Notes: generated from the sequence alone by a model not told the origin. Shown: positions 2,975 to 13,312, numbered from the stretch's first letter. The stretch is 64,000 nt of DNA from Candidatus Helarchaeota archaeon (GCA_019058315.1 JAHPZH010000001.1:96001-160000); one strand, 5' to 3'. A program made the numbers and translations.

Positions 2975-4246
2975 ATGTCGAAGCTTACTCCAGAACAACA
3001 AAAAAAATATGATAAAGCTCTAAAATTATATGCCAAAGCAGAGAAAATGATTGCAAAACAGAAATTTGATAAAGCAAAAGATAACTTCAAAAAAGCGATT
3101 AATGAATTCTATTCAATGCAGGCATATGCACAAGCCCAGAAAATTATTAATAAATTTGTAGAATCCGCTTTAATAGAAAAAGAATATCAAGAAGCCGCTG
3201 TTGCCTTGTATCAAGCTGCAAATATCGCCTTAATTGAAAATAAGGTCAAAAAAGCACTAGAAAATTATAAATCATCAATTAATTTTTTTATAGAACAATC
3301 AGGATTTAGCAAGAAAAATGAAGATATAAAATATAACGCTTTATGCCTTTCTCCTCTTTGTGAAGCCGCATTAGGTAAATTTGAGTATGCAATTGATTAT
3401 TTTAAAACAAACCTTAATCAAATTCCTCGCCGATTTAGAATCAAACTCCCAATTGTTGATTTTTGCACTTCAATTTTTAATACGCTTATTACTAAAAAGA
3501 TTGAAAATCTAAATAATTCTAAAACAATTTTAAAAGATTTAAAGTTACTAGAAGGCGAAACAATATTACTCGAAAATCTCATAAGTATTGCTGAACTTTA
3601 TGTAAAAACTAAAATCGAATCTCGTCTAAATAAAGAAAAAATAGAAGCAGGGGATAGTTTTTCTTTAAATATTTCATTAAACTCGCCTGAAAATATAGAA
3701 ATTCTTAAATATTATTTGGATTATGACACACAACGATTAGAATTAACTAATGTACCAAAAATTTCTGAGAATAAACCTATTGAATTTATATTCGATGCTA
3801 AAGTTCAAGGGAAGGCAAAATTTGGACCTCTTTTATTAACATGTAAGGCAAAAGAAATAGAGTTTCCTTTTAAATATCAAAGCATTTTAAACATATTACC
3901 AGGGAGACCAAGACTTCAAATAGATGCTCAAAGTGAGATAAATATATTCGAGGGTGATGCCTTTGATTTTGATTTCGAAATAACAAATAGAGGTAAAGGA
4001 GAGGCTATTAATTTAGCTGTAACACTTGAGGTTCCCGAAGAAATTATGATCATAGCAGGCACTAAAGAAAAAAAACTTTATTCCCTAAATTCTCAAGAAA
4101 ATTATATTTTCACATTTCCTCTACAAGCCATAAAGAGCGGAGCTTATGAAGGAAAAATCCTTATTAGTTTTGAAATTCCTCGAGGTATTTCTAGTAAGCC
4201 GGAAGAGATAGAGGAAGTAAAAACAATTAATTTTAAAGTTACTTAA
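2975..4246 (+). CDS. TPR/SNAP-like helical repeat protein with C-terminal Ig-like (CARDB/BatD-type) domains
   Basis: The N-terminal half has A/Y-patterned helical repeats (EYQEAAVALYQAAN...ALENY). The C-terminal half has 'ITNRGKGEAINLAVTLEVPE' beta-sandwich motifs. No signal peptide. Confidence 0.55.
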   Translation: MSKLTPEQQKKYDKALKLYAKAEKMIAKQKFDKAKDNFKKAINEFYSMQAYAQAQKIINKFVESALIEKEYQEAAVALYQAANIALIENKVKKALENYKSSINFFIEQSGFSKKNEDIKYNALCLSPLCEAALGKFEYAIDYFKTNLNQIPRRFRIKLPIVDFCTSIFNTLITKKIENLNNSKTILKDLKLLEGETILLENLISIAELYVKTKIESRLNKEKIEAGDSFSLNISLNSPENIEILKYYLDYDTQRLELTNVPKISENKPIEFIFDAKVQGKAKFGPLLLTCKAKEIEFPFKYQSILNILPGRPRLQIDAQSEINIFEGDAFDFDFEITNRGKGEAINLAVTLEVPEEIMIIAGTKEKKLYSLNSQENYIFTFPLQAIKSGAYEGKILISFEIPRGISSKPEEIEEVKTINFKVT

Positions 4247-4872: not shown

Positions 4873-5565
4873 TCATACCTTTAAATCAAAAAACAAGTCA
4901 ATTCCATATTTATCATAAAGCTCATCAATCAGGTAAATCAATGGGTTTAAATGACTTTTATAACGATCCCAAACAAGATGAGTTGTTTTTTCTCTTCTTT
5001 GTGCAAAATGTAAGAATCCCTCGCTATCAAAACATGGATCTTTTGGTCGGGGCGTTACTTGAATCGTAGGAGGAACATCTGGATATTCTGCATTGAATAA
5101 AATTTTCGAAACTCTTACCACACCATCTCTCCATTTAGATGATACATAAATACCCTTTTCCGGGCGTTTTTTATCTATGTATTTCCATTCACTACCGTTT
5201 ATTTCCACTATGTATTTTAGATGGGTTTTAAACAACTCAGTTCCACTTTTAATTTTACTAGAAATACTCCCACCTATGGGTTCCGGAATCCAGTATATCT
5301 TATCTGTGTCTTGTGCTATTTCCCCTATCGTGTTGCGAAGAGATATTGGTACTTTTCGACCTTGTGTAATATAGTAAAGTTTTATTGTTAGCATGTTAAT
5401 TCCGACGTTTCTAACATTGCCATATCCTAAATTTAAAACGTCTAAGATTCGATCATTATATTTCCATAATAATCTACTGGCAACATCCCTGATAATCTCA
5501 TCTTCTTGAGATTCAACATAATCTGTGGTCCCAATAAGTGGATTAACCCAAGTTATTTCTTTCAA
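4873..5565 (-). CDS. ubiquitin-like domain (ending PEPIGG, aa 99) fused to an E2/UBC-fold domain
   Basis: aa 1-99 align with the ORF at 6522 (DKIYWxPEPIGG). The C-terminal part has UBC-like 'ILFNAEYPDVPP' and aligns with the ORF at 6870. Confidence 0.7.
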   Translation of the reverse strand: MKEITWVNPLIGTTDYVESQEDEIIRDVASRLLWKYNDRILDVLNLGYGNVRNVGINMLTIKLYYITQGRKVPISLRNTIGEIAQDTDKIYWIPEPIGGSISSKIKSGTELFKTHLKYIVEINGSEWKYIDKKRPEKGIYVSSKWRDGVVRVSKILFNAEYPDVPPTIQVTPRPKDPCFDSEGFLHFAQRREKTTHLVWDRYKSHLNPLIYLIDELYDKYGIDLFFDLKV

Positions 5566-5640
5566 TGTGTTTCCGTCTTTAATTTATTATCAATTATTTA
5601 GAAATTAAAATTAATATTTATAAATTAGGTTTTTAATTTG

Positions 5641-6405
5641 ATGAAAAGATTTTTCTTTGGTCCTGTTCTTTCTCGTAGATTGGGTTTTTCTTTAGGGATT
5701 GATATATTACCCGATAAAAAGACTTGTACTTTTGACTGTCTTTACTGTGAAATAGGAAAAACTCGACGAGTTACCTCCCCAAAAACCCGTTCTCCTTTCC
5801 TAATAGAAAATAAAAAGAATTTTGAATTACAATTAAGAAATATCTTATCTCAAGATATATTAATCGATACATTAACATTTGCAGGATATTCGGGTGAGGC
5901 AACATTAAATAGTGAATTAAATACATTTTTAAACATTACAAAATCTGTAAGATCTGACCTGCATAAAGAAAATATCCCAATATCCATTTTGACTAATTCC
6001 TCAACAATTAATTTTCCTGAAATTAGAAAAATATTAATGAATTTTGATAATATAGTTGCGAAATTAGATGTTGGAAATCAAGCTTCTTTTATGAAGGTGA
6101 ATCGTCCACATTTTTTAGTTCCACAAATTTCTGATATTATAAATGGTTTAAAGCAATTAAGGGAGGAGCTTGATAAGAATCGACTCGTTATTCAGACTCT
6201 TTTGTTTAGTGAAAATAATGATAGAAAAAACATTGATTCATTAATTGAAGCTTACAATATTATCAATCCAAATAAAATTCAACTTTACTCGATTGCCCGT
6301 CCACCCGCATATGCCGTAAAAAAAATAGATGGGCTTCAATTGGAACAGATAAAAAAGAATATGCAAGATGTATTAAAAACCAATATTAAAATTGAAACTT
6401 ATTAA
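5641..6405 (+). CDS. radical SAM Fe-S oxidoreductase (COG0731-like)
   Basis: FGPVLSRRLGFSLGIDI N-terminus, CTFDCLYC motif, LTNSS, AKLD. Confidence 0.85.
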   Translation: MKRFFFGPVLSRRLGFSLGIDILPDKKTCTFDCLYCEIGKTRRVTSPKTRSPFLIENKKNFELQLRNILSQDILIDTLTFAGYSGEATLNSELNTFLNITKSVRSDLHKENIPISILTNSSTINFPEIRKILMNFDNIVAKLDVGNQASFMKVNRPHFLVPQISDIINGLKQLREELDKNRLVIQTLLFSENNDRKNIDSLIEAYNIINPNKIQLYSIARPPAYAVKKIDGLQLEQIKKNMQDVLKTNIKIETY

Positions 6406-6521
6406 AAAGATATTTGTAGTATTGATTTTAAAATTTCATTAAACAAGAAAAACCAGAAAAATAAAAAAACATAATTTCTTTTATCCATTAATAAATTAAC
6501 TTATATTATGGTGCAAAATAG

Positions 6522-6830
6522 ATGCCAGAAATGACATATGTCTGCCCGCAAATAGGTAGTACAGATTATTTAGATTATGAAGAAGATACGACCTTCGAAG
6601 ATCAAATAAATGAACTAAAAGAGAAATATTTACGAGATATTCTTGATTACGTTCAGCAATTTCGAAATATACGTCAAAATATAGGATTAGATCAAATTAC
6701 TGTAAAGATACACTATATTGATGCTGAAGGTATCAAACAAACAATTGGACTTAAAACTTACGTTAAGGCAATGGCTGAACGTCATATTGATAAGATATAT
6801 TGGGAACCCGAACCCATTGGAGGGCATTAA
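6522..6830 (+). CDS. ubiquitin-like (beta-grasp) modifier precursor ending in GG-H
   Basis: 102 aa, C-terminus YWEPEPIGGH*. Paralogous to the N-terminus of 4873..5565, and near E2, JAB and E1 genes. Confidence 0.7.
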   Translation: MPEMTYVCPQIGSTDYLDYEEDTTFEDQINELKEKYLRDILDYVQQFRNIRQNIGLDQITVKIHYIDAEGIKQTIGLKTYVKAMAERHIDKIYWEPEPIGGH

Positions 6831-6869
6831 ACCAAACTTTTAATATAAGGGTATATCTAGAGGAAAAAA

Positions 6870-7232
6870 ATGCAGCAAACTTCTAAACAAATCTTTGCAA
6901 GTCATATTTACGATTTGACAGTTCGACCCGGTTATTATCGCTCTACATGGAAACTAATTAATAAAAAAATACCCTTAAAAGGAGCTTTCGGTCATTTTAT
7001 GGGCAAGGATTTTCGAGTAATTGTAATAAAAATCTTATTTAATTCAAAATATCCCGAAAATCCTCCAAAAATTATTAGCACTCCTCCTATCCGCGATGTT
7101 TGTTGGGATAATAAGGGTGTGTTACATTGGGCTAGATACGGGGGAGAGTTTGTATGGAGTAAATATAAAGATCACTCCAATCCATTAATTTATGTCGCAG
7201 ATGAAATTACTGAAAAATATAAAACCATGTAA
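6870..7232 (+). CDS. E2/UBC-fold protein with non-canonical active site
   Basis: 'IKILFNSKYPENPPKI' UBC signature, DVCWDNKGVLH in the HPN...C position, W..Y...NPL followed by a terminal helix. Has its own GAGG SD. Confidence 0.7.
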   Translation: MQQTSKQIFASHIYDLTVRPGYYRSTWKLINKKIPLKGAFGHFMGKDFRVIVIKILFNSKYPENPPKIISTPPIRDVCWDNKGVLHWARYGGEFVWSKYKDHSNPLIYVADEITEKYKTM

Positions 7233-7256
7233 AAAAAAAATTGATTTTTAGATCTA

Positions 7257-8834
7257 TTACTTTTTAATTATTATTGCCACTAACACTAGAATTACTATCG
7301 CCATAGCACCAATTATTATCAAGAGAATAAGAGGATCAATTGGAAAACCCGCACCTGTCGGTATAGGTATAAAATTATCCATAGGTTCTGTAGACACTAA
7401 TGAAACTTTTTGTGCATATATATCATAATCACTTAAGCTTCTATTATCCTGCCACGTTATGATAGCAACTCCAGAACTAACGTAAATAATCTCATGATTT
7501 TCTTGCAAACCATATTCTGTACATACTGGCAGACCCTTACCAACATATTGCAAAATACCATTTTTATCGAGCATTTGTGCATAGATTGATCCATTAGCAT
7601 CTTCTTCTTTATCTATCCAAGAGATAAATGAATTTCCTGAGGAGTCGCAGCAAATCCTAGACTGTTGTTGATCACTGGGTGAAGTACAAACAGGGGTACC
7701 ATTATTTCTCCATAATGTGGTGCCTATTGGGTTAATTTTTTGAGTATAGATATCCTCCTCATAAATATTTCGTAAATCCTGCCATGTAATAATTGCATTT
7801 CCCTCACTATCACAGCAAATTTTTGGATAGAATTGGCTATATTCTGCTGTACAAATTGGTGTGCCATTGAGAGTCCAATAAACAGTACCAGTTGAGTCGA
7901 TTTTTTGTGCATATATATCTGTATATGTACCGTTTCTATTATCCACCCAAGTGATAATTGCATTACCAGAACTATCACAGCAAATATCAGGCCAATATTG
8001 ACTGTCAGTTGCATTACAAATTACAGTACCATTGTCTTGCAATTGTGAATGACCTGTAGAATTAATAAATTGACAATAGATATCGTTATCTGATGTTGTC
8101 ATATTTCTATAGTCTTGCCAAGTAATAATTGCGTTTCCTGCACCATAAACACTAATTTTTGGAAATGTTTGGATGTTTATAGCATTGCAAATTATTTTTC
8201 CGTTAGTTGTCCATTGGACAACTCCACTCGAATTAATTCTCTGGGCATGGATATTAGATGTTGCAAATTCATCATTTATCCATGTAAGAATCGCACCGCC
8301 TAAATTATCGCTGCAAATTTCTATCCTTGATTCATCATTAGGCAAACCAGTAATTTGCACACCGTTGGCAGTCCATTGCGTAATCCCGTTTGCGTCCACT
8401 CTTTGAGCTTTAATATTTTGAGTATCTTCCCATGCGATGATTGCCCCCCCAGAACCATCAGAACATATCTGGGGAAGAGTTTGAGAACCAGGAGAGTTAC
8501 AAATTAATGTGCCGTTAACATCCCATAATGGATTCCCATTTGAATCGATTCTTTGAACATAAATACTAGAAATGTCTCTGGAATCCGCCCAAGTAATAAT
8601 TGCACCACCAGTTCCATCACTGCATATTTCAGGATTATATTGGTCTTGTGGCGTTTGTACACATACAGGTGTACCATTAGCTGCCCATTGCGTACTTAAA
8701 CCATTAGCCTTGAGTTTAGATTTCTCATCAATTTTTAAAAGTAAGACATTTTGATTGCTAAACCCTGTATATGAATTTATAGCTAAAATGGAAAACATCA
8801 AGATTGGGATTAAAATTAAAAACCTTTTCTTCAT
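7257..8834 (-). CDS. membrane-anchored secreted beta-propeller repeat protein
   Basis: N-terminal signal-like segment, eight ~55-60 aa repeats (P.ICxDxxG.AIITW.D...DIYAQK), C-terminal TM helix followed by KK. Confidence 0.75.
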   Translation of the reverse strand: MKKRFLILIPILMFSILAINSYTGFSNQNVLLLKIDEKSKLKANGLSTQWAANGTPVCVQTPQDQYNPEICSDGTGGAIITWADSRDISSIYVQRIDSNGNPLWDVNGTLICNSPGSQTLPQICSDGSGGAIIAWEDTQNIKAQRVDANGITQWTANGVQITGLPNDESRIEICSDNLGGAILTWINDEFATSNIHAQRINSSGVVQWTTNGKIICNAINIQTFPKISVYGAGNAIITWQDYRNMTTSDNDIYCQFINSTGHSQLQDNGTVICNATDSQYWPDICCDSSGNAIITWVDNRNGTYTDIYAQKIDSTGTVYWTLNGTPICTAEYSQFYPKICCDSEGNAIITWQDLRNIYEEDIYTQKINPIGTTLWRNNGTPVCTSPSDQQQSRICCDSSGNSFISWIDKEEDANGSIYAQMLDKNGILQYVGKGLPVCTEYGLQENHEIIYVSSGVAIITWQDNRSLSDYDIYAQKVSLVSTEPMDNFIPIPTGAGFPIDPLILLIIIGAMAIVILVLVAIIIKK

Positions 8835-8949
8835 TTTTAACAAATCCAATTTTTATTAAAATATATCAAATATACTGAGGTTATAACATATAAATTGGAG
8901 TAATAGTTCATAGAGAAATAGAATAATTAAGTTAGAAAGTCGTGTAGAA

Positions 8950-10023
8950 ATGCGAGTAATTATAGATTCGTCGGTAATTGAATCATGTAAGCAAACAATT
9001 CAAGAATGTTATGGTGAAAAAGCGTTTAAAGAAGTAGGGGGGTATATTTTAGGAATGTTTGACGGCGAAAATTTCCAAGTTAAATCCCTTTATCTTGATA
9101 AATATGCTGAATCGACTTCTATCAGAATTAAACTAAGCGTTGATGCATTCCATGAAGTTGAGGAAATACTTTCCCAATCTCCTGAAATGATGTATATTGG
9201 GACATGGCATGTTCATCCTGGGACAGATAAACCCGCATACTCAAATGTTGATGTTTCAACTCTATTTTTAGAACGGGTAATTATAGACACAGATAATCCT
9301 GAAAGTTTGAAATGCCCAAAGATTCATATAATTTTTAATAATTCTCTAACTGAATATAGTTGTTATACTATGGATATATTTTTTAATTTTTTATGCGAAC
9401 CTCTTGATTCATCTGTTGCCAAAAATTTAGTTGAAGCTGAATTGCTTGAAATTGGGCTAGATGCCCTTACGGAATCTAAAACCTTGCTAAAACTAGAAAC
9501 TCTTGAAAGTTATATCAATTTACAAAAAAATATCGAAGAAGTGTATAATAATCTCGATTTAATTTCTGACCAAATCAATTTTGCACTTGACTTTTTTAAT
9601 GAACTTGAATGGTATAATAAAGTTGAAAATAAAATCGAAAAAATAATTAAGAATGAGATTAAAAATGGAGAAAGAATTGGAGTAATCTCTTCTGAAAACG
9701 AGAAAAAAATCGAAAGCTTGAAATATAGACCTAAGAATATAAAAAATTCATATACAGATGGATCTTTAGTAGGTTTTTGGGTATTATTTCCATACGAAAG
9801 TATCAGCGATATGTTTTTGAAAATTTTTTATGCTAATTTCTTCAAAAAAATTGAGACTGAACCTGGAGATGTCTTCTTATTCTTCCTAGTTCAAAAAATT
9901 AAGGAAGAAATCATGATTAAACCGTTTTTTTTAAATTTCACATCATTTGAAGGAATATCATATATAGAATTAGAAATGACTTTGATTGAGGATGACAATG
10001 AAAATAATGTTTCAGAATCCTGA
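8950..10023 (+). CDS. JAB/MPN+ (JAMM) metalloprotease with C-terminal extension
   Basis: EVGGYILG and GTWHVHPGTDKPAYSNVD (E...HxH...S..D). Confidence 0.85.
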   Translation: MRVIIDSSVIESCKQTIQECYGEKAFKEVGGYILGMFDGENFQVKSLYLDKYAESTSIRIKLSVDAFHEVEEILSQSPEMMYIGTWHVHPGTDKPAYSNVDVSTLFLERVIIDTDNPESLKCPKIHIIFNNSLTEYSCYTMDIFFNFLCEPLDSSVAKNLVEAELLEIGLDALTESKTLLKLETLESYINLQKNIEEVYNNLDLISDQINFALDFFNELEWYNKVENKIEKIIKNEIKNGERIGVISSENEKKIESLKYRPKNIKNSYTDGSLVGFWVLFPYESISDMFLKIFYANFFKKIETEPGDVFLFFLVQKIKEEIMIKPFFLNFTSFEGISYIELEMTLIEDDNENNVSES

Positions 10024-11077
10024 TACGGGTGAAACAATATATATCGAGGATGAGGAGCTTCTTATCAGAGATATTGCCAATAAAATAATGAAAGAATACA
10101 ATCTAGAAAAACCACCAATCTTCTTCACCCTTATGAAAGAAGACCCAGTATCAGAAACTTATCTAGAAGAAGATGATAAATTAAAAACAATTAATGAAGA
10201 AAAATTGGATGTAAAGACACCAATATGGTGGCGATCGTCAGAAATTGATCTAGATTTAATTTATAAACTTCGAACAGAACGCTATGATAGATCGGGTTAT
10301 GAGCTAGAAAAAATCGGAAAAACCAAGGTATTAATTGCAGGTGTGGGATTATTAGGAGCGGATATTGCGTTTGATTGCGCAGTTTTAGGAATAAAGGACC
10401 TTACAATAATTGATTATGGGTCTGTAGATTGGTTTAATATCTATCGACAAAGTCTCTATTCCAAAAAAGATGTATTTAAATCGAAAGTTGAAGTGGCAAA
10501 AGAAAATCTCGAGGATATGGGGGGTGTAAATGTTAAATCATTAAAAATTGAGATTCCAAGTTTTATTTATCTGCCAGAAGATAAAAGTATAATACAAAAT
10601 TCCATTTTAAAAATTGAGCCTGAAGTTAAAAAATGTGATATAATAATTACTGCTCTTGATACATTCAGCGCTAGAATGATAATGCAAACTTTAGCTTTAG
10701 CAAATGATAAAATCCTTATTAATACGGCGGCTGGTCTAGTAGGTGGGGTAGTTCAATTAGTGAGAATTAAGCAAAATGATCCTTGCTTGGCATGTGGTAT
10801 TTATTTTGATAGAAATCAAGATGTGGGTGCGTGCACTTTGGCATCGTTTGGTACTCCTAAAATCATATCTGGAATTACAATGGAAATTTTGACAAATCTG
10901 ATTGAAGAAAGAGAAATCAAATATAACCATTTTAAATATATTCCCCAAACTTACCAAATAGAACAAAGTAATTTTATAAAAGGCAAAGAGTTCTGTGATT
11001 TTTGCGATAGGGAGAAAGGAATTATATTTAAATATAAAAATGGAGAAAAAAAAGCCCTAATTGATTGGTTATATTGA
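9998..11077 (+). CDS. E1-like (ThiF/MoeB) adenylating enzyme with N-terminal Ubl-like domain
   Basis: GVGLLG, DYGSVDWFNIYRQ, SKVEVAK, DTFSAR, two Zn CxxC motifs (PCLAC, FCDFC) and a candidate catalytic Cys (VGACTL). Overlaps the JAB gene. Confidence 0.88.
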   Translation: MKIMFQNPDTGETIYIEDEELLIRDIANKIMKEYNLEKPPIFFTLMKEDPVSETYLEEDDKLKTINEEKLDVKTPIWWRSSEIDLDLIYKLRTERYDRSGYELEKIGKTKVLIAGVGLLGADIAFDCAVLGIKDLTIIDYGSVDWFNIYRQSLYSKKDVFKSKVEVAKENLEDMGGVNVKSLKIEIPSFIYLPEDKSIIQNSILKIEPEVKKCDIIITALDTFSARMIMQTLALANDKILINTAAGLVGGVVQLVRIKQNDPCLACGIYFDRNQDVGACTLASFGTPKIISGITMEILTNLIEEREIKYNHFKYIPQTYQIEQSNFIKGKEFCDFCDREKGIIFKYKNGEKKALIDWLY

Positions 11078-12145: not shown

Positions 12146-13312
12146 ATGCCAAAACCTGAAAATTGGATACTTATAAAGGTCCACGCTAATACAAAATTAG
12201 ATATTCCAAAGACAAAAATTCCACATCATAAAACTTGCGGGTTTCTTTCAAGAAGATTAAAAAATTTGTTAATGGATTCATTTGCATATGCATTTATTTC
12301 AGCAATAAATGAACCATATTTTAAAGTAGCAATAGGAAAATCTGATGAAGCTTTTGAAAAAAGGTTTTTAAATGTAATCAAGCGAACCTTTTTGAAAGAG
12401 CTAGTATTAGAGGTCTTTAGAAAGGGTGGTTTGGGATATGGTAAAAAAGGATACTTAGAACCACTTCCTTATTCAAAGCCCTACTGGGAGTATGACTTCG
12501 TAAATGCTAAAAGATTCGATGTTGATGGTAATCTAAAGGGTTTTATTGATGTAAAAGTTATTTATATTAATTACTCTTCTGAAAAAAACGTTACAATTGA
12601 AGAATTAGACACCACAAAAATAAAAAGATCGAAAAAAGCTTCAAAAGATGCTCCAGATATATCGCATCCTTTAGGAATATTGCTTGAAGCACCATGGCGT
12701 CATTATTATAAACTAATTGAACAAACTAAAAGAAAGAATGGTGACAAATTAGAGGTTCCATTCGAAATTCTATTCGTTTTAGCACCTTGGTTTGATCAAA
12801 CAGTTGAAGGTGAAATTTTAGATTTATTAGAAGAATATGTGCACCTTGATCATTCTAAAAAATCATTACCTATTCCTTCACAAGTACCTAAATTAATCGA
12901 GAGATATTTCCCTCTTGTTGAAGAAAGACCAGCGAGTTCCGATTGGATTTTGGAAAACTGGAATAAAATTTATGATGTTATTGGTTATGAGGCCGAGAGA
13001 TCTATTAAAGATTTAGAAGGATTTTGGTTATGGGTTTTGGGTGTTGTCGACAAAGGAAAAGCAAAAAAATTCGTGAATGTATACTACGATGATCAAATAA
13101 TGATGAACATTGAAGGAAAAGATACTGCGATCTGGAGCTCTGTGGTTCCCCCACCATATCCGCGAATTTATTCTTCTTATCTTAAAAAGAAAGAAGCTGG
13201 AGAAGACGTATCTCCTCCTGATATCGATCCGGATCATCCAGATTATAATTTGAATAACCATGCAATCGATGTTTTTTCAGATGATGTAAAACCAATAACA
13301 GATTATATTTAG
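12146..13312 (+). CDS. hypothetical protein
   Basis: 388-aa ORF with normal composition; no family recognised. Confidence 0.6.
   Translation: MPKPENWILIKVHANTKLDIPKTKIPHHKTCGFLSRRLKNLLMDSFAYAFISAINEPYFKVAIGKSDEAFEKRFLNVIKRTFLKELVLEVFRKGGLGYGKKGYLEPLPYSKPYWEYDFVNAKRFDVDGNLKGFIDVKVIYINYSSEKNVTIEELDTTKIKRSKKASKDAPDISHPLGILLEAPWRHYYKLIEQTKRKNGDKLEVPFEILFVLAPWFDQTVEGEILDLLEEYVHLDHSKKSLPIPSQVPKLIERYFPLVEERPASSDWILENWNKIYDVIGYEAERSIKDLEGFWLWVLGVVDKGKAKKFVNVYYDDQIMMNIEGKDTAIWSSVVPPPYPRIYSSYLKKKEAGEDVSPPDIDPDHPDYNLNNHAIDVFSDDVKPITDYI

Follow-up and report, generated by a model that had tools for sequence, protein, structure and literature searches.

A probable ubiquitin-like conjugation module of Helarchaeales whose E2-like domains carry a conserved cysteine at the HPN asparagine position

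In a 64,000 nucleotide (nt) stretch of DNA from a Candidatus Helarchaeota archaeon (GCA_019058315.1 JAHPZH010000001.1:96001-160000), here called the window, the segment from position 4873 to 11077 encodes a set of proteins that resemble components of ubiquitin conjugation. The original prediction, made from the sequence alone, was of a non-canonical, apparently E3-less system with two ubiquitin-like proteins (Ubls), two E2-like domains, a JAB protease and an E1, and an open reading frame (ORF) listing together with motif searches placed all of these features at the predicted positions. The first gene, at 4873-5565 on the minus strand, encodes a 230 amino acid (aa) precursor in which a Ubl is fused to an E2-like domain. 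The remaining four are on the plus strand, and encode a 102 aa Ubl precursor (6522-6830), a 120 aa stand-alone minimal E2-like protein (6870-7232), a 357 aa JAB/JAMM metallopeptidase (8950-10023) and an E1 (ORF 9986-11077, 363 aa). The locus is most likely a self-contained Ubl conjugation module that does not need a dedicated E3. The interpretation first given to it is partly supported, and the points at which it needs revision are the activity of the E2-like domains, the linkage of the two Ubl/E2 pairs and the distribution of the family.

The window includes two paralogous pairs of Ubl and E2-like domain, one fused (4873-5565) and one split (6522-6830 and 6870-7232, separated by 39 nt). Residues 1-99 of the fusion are 42 % identical to the 102 aa protein (E 5e-22), and the ~125 C-terminal residues share 41 % identity with the 120 aa protein (E 4e-26); both similarities are far beyond chance and bear out the paralogy proposed for the two components. 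As both halves match the products of the two small genes, the 230 aa gene is a fusion of their paralogues, and the junction falls exactly at ...PEPIGG/S. The fusion reads ...DKIYWIPEPIGG/SISSK... and then continues into the E2-like domain, and the C-terminus of the 102 aa protein is DKIYWEPEPIGGH. Neither the Ubls nor the E2-like proteins are recognised by any Pfam or NCBIfam model, and none of the locus proteins matches the Pfam families for ubiquitin (PF00240), UQ_con or RING.

An AlphaFold2 (AF2) model of the fusion was built on 18 homologues (mean predicted local distance difference test score, pLDDT, 84). Residues 1-99 have the order beta-beta-alpha-beta-beta-(alpha)-beta, and for this N-terminal half Foldseek returned ubiquitin, RAWUL and FERM-F1 domains. 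In a VIA-align structure comparison spanning 48,161 chains, the Ubl half matched ubiquitin-like folds at Z 8.8, and a second look found the closest solved structure to be UFM1 (Z 10.0, root-mean-square deviation, rmsd, 1.8 Å over 76 residues). As modelled, the ~100 aa proteins are beta-grasp Ubls ending in GG, as had been proposed. An Atlas shape search with the fusion gave TM-scores below 0.5 throughout; the rows were UQ_con, ubiquitin and E2-CBASS, and nothing beyond the PDB searches was found.

The GG is at residues 98-99 of the fusion (nt 5269-5274, with the Ubl part covering nt 5269-5565) and at residues 100-101 of the 102 aa protein (nt 6819-6824), where His102 forms a cap. It is nearly invariant across the family and sits exactly at the Ubl/E2 domain junction. 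Stand-alone Ubl orthologues have 1-7 or more residues beyond the GG in every case, and there is no orthologue with a free GG, as either a tail or a fused E2 is always present; the claim that neither GG in the window is free thus extends to the whole family. Orthologues of the 102 aa Ubl in six related genomes are directly upstream of the E2-like gene and all have post-GG tails, and three genomes (G125, G128 and G123) have the counterpart of the fusion as two separate genes, with a tail of 1-7 residues after the GG of each Ubl. This repeated fusion and fission of the Ubl/E2 pair argues that the fusion is a precursor that is cut at the GG. For Type I Bub (6E.1), experiments have demonstrated that such a Ubl-E2 pre-protein is cleaved, the protease being the JAB part of a JAB-E1 fusion (bioRxiv 10.1101/2024.11.21.623953). 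On the strength of the conserved sequences, the modifiers most likely need processing at the GG by the JAB protein.

The E2-like half of the fusion (residues ~103-221) has the order alpha-beta4-alpha-alpha in the AF2 model over residues 103-221, and Foldseek matched the C-terminal half to the UEV domain of VPS37A. Matches to E2 folds were at Z 9.3-9.9 overall, over 99-114 residues, and include the E2 enzyme structure 2h2y (Z 9.3, 104 residues, rmsd 2.9) and Ubc15 (Z 9.9, VIA-align). The two C-terminal UBC helices are absent, because the domain stops after helix 2. The partner domains are thus modelled as a truncated UBC fold with a YPxxPP motif in strand 4, the 120 aa protein carrying YPENPP...RDVCWDNKGVLHW, and in respect of fold the original assignment stands. 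A profile of 23 E2-like domains reached UbcH7 in the PDB at E 7.5e-4 and a UQ_con ORF of the same genome at E 5e-5. UQ_con itself matches only 1 of 18 members, at E 0.014. The alignment to UbcH7 is gapless from YPxxPP through the active-site hairpin, and places D-P-C over H-P-N and Leu-His over Ile-Cys, the latter cysteine being the catalytic one. When the profile was compared with a single canonical E2 of the same genome using hhalign, the match was weak (E 0.037 over 27 columns) and in the correct register, and small beta-bridges predicted at residues 179 and 184-185 of the AF2 fusion model agree with the canonical hairpin.

The D-P-C cysteine is Cys78 in the 120 aa protein (nt 7101-7103) and Cys178 in the fusion (nt 5032-5034). 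It is found in 22 of the 23 aligned family members, both window copies included, and the aspartate (Asp76) in 20 of them; Cys78 is also kept in every additional E2-like ORF found at the loci of relatives. The position of the canonical cysteine is occupied by His86 (nt 7125-7127) and His186 (nt 5008-5010), respectively, and a histidine in helix 1 (His12 of the 120 aa protein) is invariant across the family. The canonical catalytic signature of E2s, HPN with a cysteine 8 residues downstream, is absent from the E2-like domains. In UbcH5B~Ub, the C-alpha of the HPN asparagine is 4.1 Å from the thioester carbonyl (PMC12032130), and a cysteine relocated to this position would therefore face, and could reach, the same pocket. 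Because the conserved cysteine is at the HPN asparagine position and the canonical site is without one, E2 catalysis is putative here, and designation of these domains as E2s holds for the fold and not for the canonical active site. No published precedent for a cysteine at the HPN asparagine position turned up in a literature search that was not exhaustive.

The 357 aa protein is matched by PADLOC JAB models (to 1.6e-10), and weakly by Pfam Prok-JAB (0.011). Its catalytic residues (E28, H87-x-H89, S98 and D101) lie within a catalytic domain of residues ~1-130, and are conserved in 11 family members. A family-specific C-terminal extension consists of a coiled-coil-like insert and then a conserved GFW..FPY...F..IF.NFF.K block, for which an ESM-Atlas feature search found only unnamed or JAB clusters, with scores of no more than 0.91. 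Among relatives, the JAB is found fused to the E1 or to Ubl-E2.

The likely start of the E1 is the ATG at 9998, which has GAGG 6 nt upstream and agrees with the MK(L/I)xFQN start of the orthologues. From this start, the E1 gene overlaps the JAB gene by 26 nt. The possibility that the two are a frameshifted JAB-E1 fusion was rejected, as JAB and E1 are separate genes in all seven Helarchaeales genomes, with differing spacers. The E1 (359-363 aa) has a single ThiF domain at residues 107-311 (Pfam ThiF, 3.3e-31). It includes a GxGxxG motif (G119/G121/G124), R154 and D225, zinc ligands C267/C270 and C337/C340, and C283 in the crossover loop (GACTLAS). The crossover-loop cysteine (G-A-C-T-L-A) is invariant in an alignment of 13 family E1s and in the alignment A3, in which ten of the 13 were realigned, and the GxGxxG, Arg and Asp residues of the ATP site and both CxxC zinc motifs are common to the aligned E1s. 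The description of a JAMM protease and an overlapping E1 with intact ATP, zinc and candidate cysteine motifs is thus upheld by conservation across the family. Among solved E1s, Atg7 is nearer by sequence (6e-14) than Uba1, SAE2, MoeB and UBA5, and is the best match.

Upstream of the ThiF domain, residues ~5-96 (ORF numbering) form a separate domain that lacks a GG (AF2 pLDDT 82.6). All of its top 50 fold matches are of the Ubl type, including the UBL of Get5 (Z 9.5) and Fubi (Z 8.6), and the hhalign alignment to the Ubl family extends over its whole length (E 1.8e-4, probability 49 %). The E1 N-terminus is modelled as a third, GG-less copy of the same beta-grasp as the modifiers.

Our preferred model, which we consider probable on the pattern of conserved residues and gene linkage, is a JAB-processed, thioester-based and E3-independent Ubl conjugation. 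Two Ubl precursors would be made, one capped by a histidine after the GG and the other fused through the GG to its own E2-like domain. Cutting after the GG by the JAB would expose the Ubl carboxylate and, for the fusion, would also yield a free E2-like protein. The E1, a single-domain enzyme of the Atg7/UBA5/MoeB type that is presumably a homodimer, would adenylate the Ubl and load it onto crossover-loop Cys283. The E2-like protein would dock on the E1, possibly via the N-terminal GG-less Ubl domain acting in the role of a UFD, and the Ubl would pass to the D-P-C cysteine beside the canonical site. The charged E2 would then hand the Ubl straight to target lysines. Both Ubl/E2 pairs would share one JAB and one E1, and would probably define two sets of targets.

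A six-frame search of 400 genomes of the Asgard phylum found the family in all seven Helarchaeales genomes, which represent three families, and, outside the order, in three clear cases from two further Asgard families. Each of the six other Helarchaeales genomes keeps the order Ubl, E2-like, JAB, E1, as the proposed linkage predicts. The orthologous loci include those of Candidatus Helarchaeota Hel_GB_A and Hel_GB_B, and proteins nearly identical to those of the genome are named Promethearchaeota, in line with its placement among the Asgard Helarchaeales. The counterparts of the fused gene (52-62 % identity) are on other contigs than the operon, and in G126 the second pair is >10 kb from either contig end and unlinked to the operon. 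This second pair is fused in three genomes (among the relatives, G126 and G127) and split in three. Hence, both Ubl/E2 pairs are present as predicted, but only one of them belongs to the conserved operon, the other being unlinked to it in relatives.

An exhaustive HMMER search recovered only 29 relatives among 1.84 billion representative proteins, most of them Ubl-E2 fusions, and on the contigs of relatives an E1 gene is always next door. Four loci encode JAB-E1 fusions of 685-690 aa (L046, L047, L056 and L057) and one (L054) a Ubl-E2-JAB fusion followed by the E1. The fusions seen are thus Ubl-E2, JAB-E1 and Ubl-E2-JAB, Rosetta-stone evidence of a functional link between the components, and E2 and E1 are never fused within the family. 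A tblastn search of 72,556 plasmids with a JAB-E1 fusion found only generic ThiF/MoeB genes. The bacterial carriers include a Cytophagales metagenome-assembled genome (MAG) and a Gemmatimonadales MAG. The proposal of a distinct Asgard Ubl pathway therefore holds in that the module is distinct, but it is neither Asgard-wide, with seven Helarchaeales and about three further cases among 400 genomes, nor confined to Asgard archaea, given the bacterial members.

One further entry, L060 (DATKTP010000162.1), is labelled 'Candidatus Deferrimicrobium sp.', but its operon is of the Helarchaeales type and its E1 shares 57 % identity with that in the window; it is probably a binning or labelling error and not a bacterial carrier. 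In the Gemmatimonadales MAG, two genes just downstream of the E1 (L066:7155-7643 and L066:7650-8816) both start with GG-less Ubl copies (hhalign E 6.7e-11), and one of them continues into WG beta-repeats. Their products could serve as docking adaptors or be substrates, and a search with the Ubl profile revealed no counterpart in the genome of the window.

Conjugation by this mechanism is also compatible with a role in antiviral defence or conflict, in which invader proteins would be tagged as in Bil, Bub and type II CBASS. All characterised prokaryotic E1-E2-JAB-Ubl operons are linked to defence, and the best PADLOC models for the JAB and E1 are Cap3 and Cap2 of CBASS; the bacterial members are sporadic, and the Gemmatimonadales locus is near a resolvase and a HerA-like ATPase that matches defence models. 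However, the occurrence of the operon in all seven Helarchaeales genomes across three families, its conserved order and the ancient, retained duplication of the Ubl/E2 pair argue for vertical inheritance and not for a patchy defence island. The genes around the locus in the window are metabolic, with no match to a PADLOC system model as a whole, and none of the other nine bacterial neighbours tested match PADLOC. We therefore consider a defence function rather unlikely, and as every Helarchaeales genome sampled has the system, a resident regulatory role is favoured over mobile defence.

The following observations weigh against conjugation by the preferred route. Loss of the HPN motif is the usual signature of inactive, UEV-type domains, and the canonical cysteine position is His in 13 of the 23 aligned members and otherwise variable (D, K, N, S and others), with one member having a cysteine at both positions. 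In a bacterial sub-clade, Arg or Ser replaces the D-P-C cysteine. The placing of Cys78 and His86 near the canonical site is read from sequence register and secondary structure only. The predicted complex of the E1 and the E2-like protein supports contact between them weakly (score 0.32, against 0.00 for the best control); runs agree in 100 % of contacts and the pLDDT of the partner is at least 85. In the benchmark for this score, 58 of 80 solved complexes attained that mark, as did 2 of 110 mismatched pairs, and the range of 0.60 or under included only 7 of the 80 solved complexes together with both passing mismatches. No target, effector or E3-like partner is conserved beside the operon.

The lack of HPN and of a canonical cysteine, the Arg or Ser replacements and the weak complex prediction would fit a non-catalytic UEV/RWD-like adaptor (a Ubl-binding chaperone, cap or specificity factor), with conjugation, if any, occurring directly from the E1 as in archaeal SAMPylation, where UbaA and a JAMM protease act without an E2. 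Consistent with this, the scores of the VPS37A UEV (Z 8.9) and of Mms2 (E 5e-3) come close to those of active E2s. However, Cys78 and Asp76 are retained across diverse members, Cys78 is in the active-site hairpin adjoining the canonical site, and the invariant crossover-loop cysteine is as found in E1s that hand over to an E2. Furthermore, E2 domains without the cysteine occur only in proteins of the Ubl-E2-JAB type (P0019, P0028 and P0035), and L054, the one locus of this type examined, retains a second, upstream Ubl-E2 with an intact D-P-C. On balance, a purely adaptor function is unlikely. A sulfur-carrier relay of the ThiS/MoaD-ThiF/MoeB type, in which the E1 would make only a Ubl thiocarboxylate with no protein conjugation, is highly improbable: the single MoeB/ThiF-type adenylation domain with its zinc site and the NCBIfam ThiF and MoeB models as top generic matches would suit it, but the E1 falls far below the equivalog cut-offs (ThiF, 79 vs 275 bits; MoeB, 51 vs 377; UbaA, 33 vs 450), far better ThiF/MoeB candidates are encoded elsewhere in the genome (E 1e-81 and 1e-74), no rhodanese or sulfurtransferase gene is linked, and sulfur carriers are neither made as E2 fusions nor operon-linked to UBC-fold proteins, whereas a UBC-fold partner is always linked here.

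Thioester-based conjugation can be extended to a more specific account, which we put forward tentatively, as it could well prove wrong in one or more parts. In this account, the E2-like domain is a working E2 with a moved nucleophile (Cys at the HPN asparagine position and often His at the cysteine site, a possible Cys-His pair), recruited to a minimal E1 via the N-terminal copy of the modifier, which would be an independently evolved counterpart of the UFD. The system might then represent a fourth distinct prokaryotic Ubl chemistry beside Bil, CBASS and Bub, with a core function fixed in one Asgard order, and be derived from classical UBC-type E2s and not from bacterial Prok-E2 families. E3-less E1-E2-JAB-Ubl modules are known from bacteria, and each characterised family has differing chemistry. 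Three things are new here: an E2 nucleophile that may have shifted position in a UBC active-site hairpin of otherwise classical form, an E1 bearing a copy of its own modifier as a putative docking domain, and a module with a duplicated Ubl/E2 pair that is fixed across an entire Asgard order in which eukaryote-like Ub/E2/RING clusters also occur. The locus offers a simple four-protein system for probing the plasticity of E2 active sites, and a setting in which to study the coexistence of several Ubl pathways in archaea closely related to eukaryotes.

Among described systems, the closest in architecture is Type I Bub (formerly 6E.1 or DUF6527; BubAB, BubCD and BubE), but the locus is not a member. 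Both have a Ubl-E2 fusion pre-protein with a cleavable Gly at the junction, a JAB fused or adjacent to a single-domain, homodimer-type E1, an E2 without the two C-terminal UBC helices, and no E3. However, the crossover loop of the Bub E1 has no cysteine and an invariant Tyr where the locus E1 has an invariant Cys, and the invariant Ser-x-His of the Bub E2 (Prok-E2_E) is missing from the locus E2, which does not match PF14462. In addition, the locus Ubl does not match Multi_ubiq, and its E1 has the extra N-terminal Ubl domain. The chemistry in this family is probably thioester-based rather than a Bub-like oxyester. BubE (DUF6527, PF20137) had no match in the genome of the window (94 % complete) or in two bacterial and two Helarchaeota carrier genomes; as a positive control, PF20137 matched 10 of 201 Bacteroidota genomes. 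As the PDB sequence matches of the E1, the JAB and a JAB-E1 fusion included no Bub or Bil structure, a complete Bub-type operon (Multi_ubiq, Prok-E2_E, JAB-ThiF and DUF6527) from Bacteroidota genome G500 (L081, C1:1059069-1071257) was used for comparison. No similarity of its BubB and BubA to the E2 or Ubl of the locus family was detected using hhalign. The Ubl and E2 of this Bub-type operon are separate genes, not fused, and it includes helix-turn-helix and Peptidase_M78 regulators.

The BilABCD operon has the identical gene order (Ubl, E2, JAB deubiquitinase, E1), and its deubiquitinase pre-processes a C-terminally extended Ubl in an E3-independent, thioester-based pathway, features that for the locus would follow from the preferred mechanism. 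However, the Bil E1 is multidomain (IAD-AAD-CYS), whereas the locus E1 has one adenylation domain with the cysteine in the crossover loop, and the Bil E2 has the canonical cysteine. The Bil and locus proteins do not match at the sequence level. In type II CBASS, Cap2 is an E2-E1 fusion that acts on a linked CD-NTase, whereas fusion of E2 to E1 is not seen in the locus family. The operon includes no nucleotidyltransferase, and its PADLOC and NCBIfam matches to Cap2 and Cap3 are at the domain level and far below cut-off.

The likeness to the UFM1 and Atg systems is in individual components. UFM1, the best structural match of the Ubl (Z 10.0), is made with a C-terminal cap, the E1s are likewise of the minimal type with a crossover-loop cysteine (best sequence match Atg7, 6e-14), and UFC1 is an E2 without HPN and the C-terminal helices (PMC12032130). 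However, the locus proteins have no family-level sequence membership of the UFM1 or Atg7-Atg3 systems. Processing would be by a JAB metalloprotease and not by a cysteine protease (UfSP or Atg4), the cysteine of UFC1 and Atg3 stays at the structurally canonical site, and the locus has no analogue of the UFL1 E3 or of Atg12-5.

The eukaryote-like archaeal ubiquitin (Ub) operons of Caldiarchaeum subterraneum and Asgard archaea (Ub, E1, E2, small RING and Rpn11) share with the locus an archaeal host and an E1-E2 cascade, and in these an Rpn11/JAB-type peptidase processes the Ub precursor (PMC6043591). They differ in that their ubiquitin belongs to PF00240, their E2 is of the UQ_con type with HPN...Cys and their E3 is a RING protein. 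Three clusters of this kind were found elsewhere in the genome, on contigs C10 (~102.9-106.2 kb; L048), C2 (~153-157 kb) and C6 (~266-272 kb), in agreement with the original treatment of such systems as a separate Asgard kind. They encode an E1, a UQ_con E2 with HPN...C, a small RING protein and an 81 aa Ub ending in a free GG; on C10, for example, a Ub with a free GG is accompanied by an E2 with HPNIRGEKVC. As these three PF00240/UQ_con/RING clusters are located elsewhere, the locus is a separate, fourth system. The claim that no RING gene is present agrees with the lack of a zf-RING_2 match inside the window (there are 22 elsewhere in the genome); HECT, named in the same claim, was not searched for.

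Two further genes lie among those of the locus. Between the E2-like and JAB genes, a gene on the minus strand (7257-8849) encodes a 530 aa protein that has a hydrophobic segment at the N-terminus, numerous repeats of ~45 residues in which 'AIITW.D' is frequent, and a transmembrane helix at the C-terminus, with weak NCBIfam matches to a PDIAV-motif lipoprotein and to beta-propeller repeat models. No relative has this gene in its operon, the insertion being found only in the genome of the window, and it is unrelated and not part of the system. In two genomes of one family, an insertion is found instead between JAB and E1 (L035:11459-12625, minus strand, and the equivalent gap in L037). In L035 it encodes, on the opposite strand, a 388 aa protein with a weak match to GNAT acetyltransferases. 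The GNAT-like insertions (L035 and L037), set against that at 7257-8849, indicate that the operon tolerates insertions at junctions that differ between lineages.

Directly upstream of the 102 aa Ubl gene, a 255 aa radical-SAM protein (5638-6405, plus strand) has a CxxxCxxC motif (CTFDCLYC) and matches Pfam Radical_SAM at 2.6e-6; against the viperin model it scores 27.7 bits, with a cut-off of 180. Its linkage to the operon is confined to two genomes of one family (the window and G128/L041), and for this reason it was not retained as a possible fifth component. Two flanking plus-strand genes, encoding proteins of 388 aa (12146-13312) and 423 aa (2975-4246), have no Pfam or NCBIfam match. In G126 (L034), a homologue of the 423 aa protein is encoded ~3 kb upstream of the gene for the Ubl-E2 fusion.

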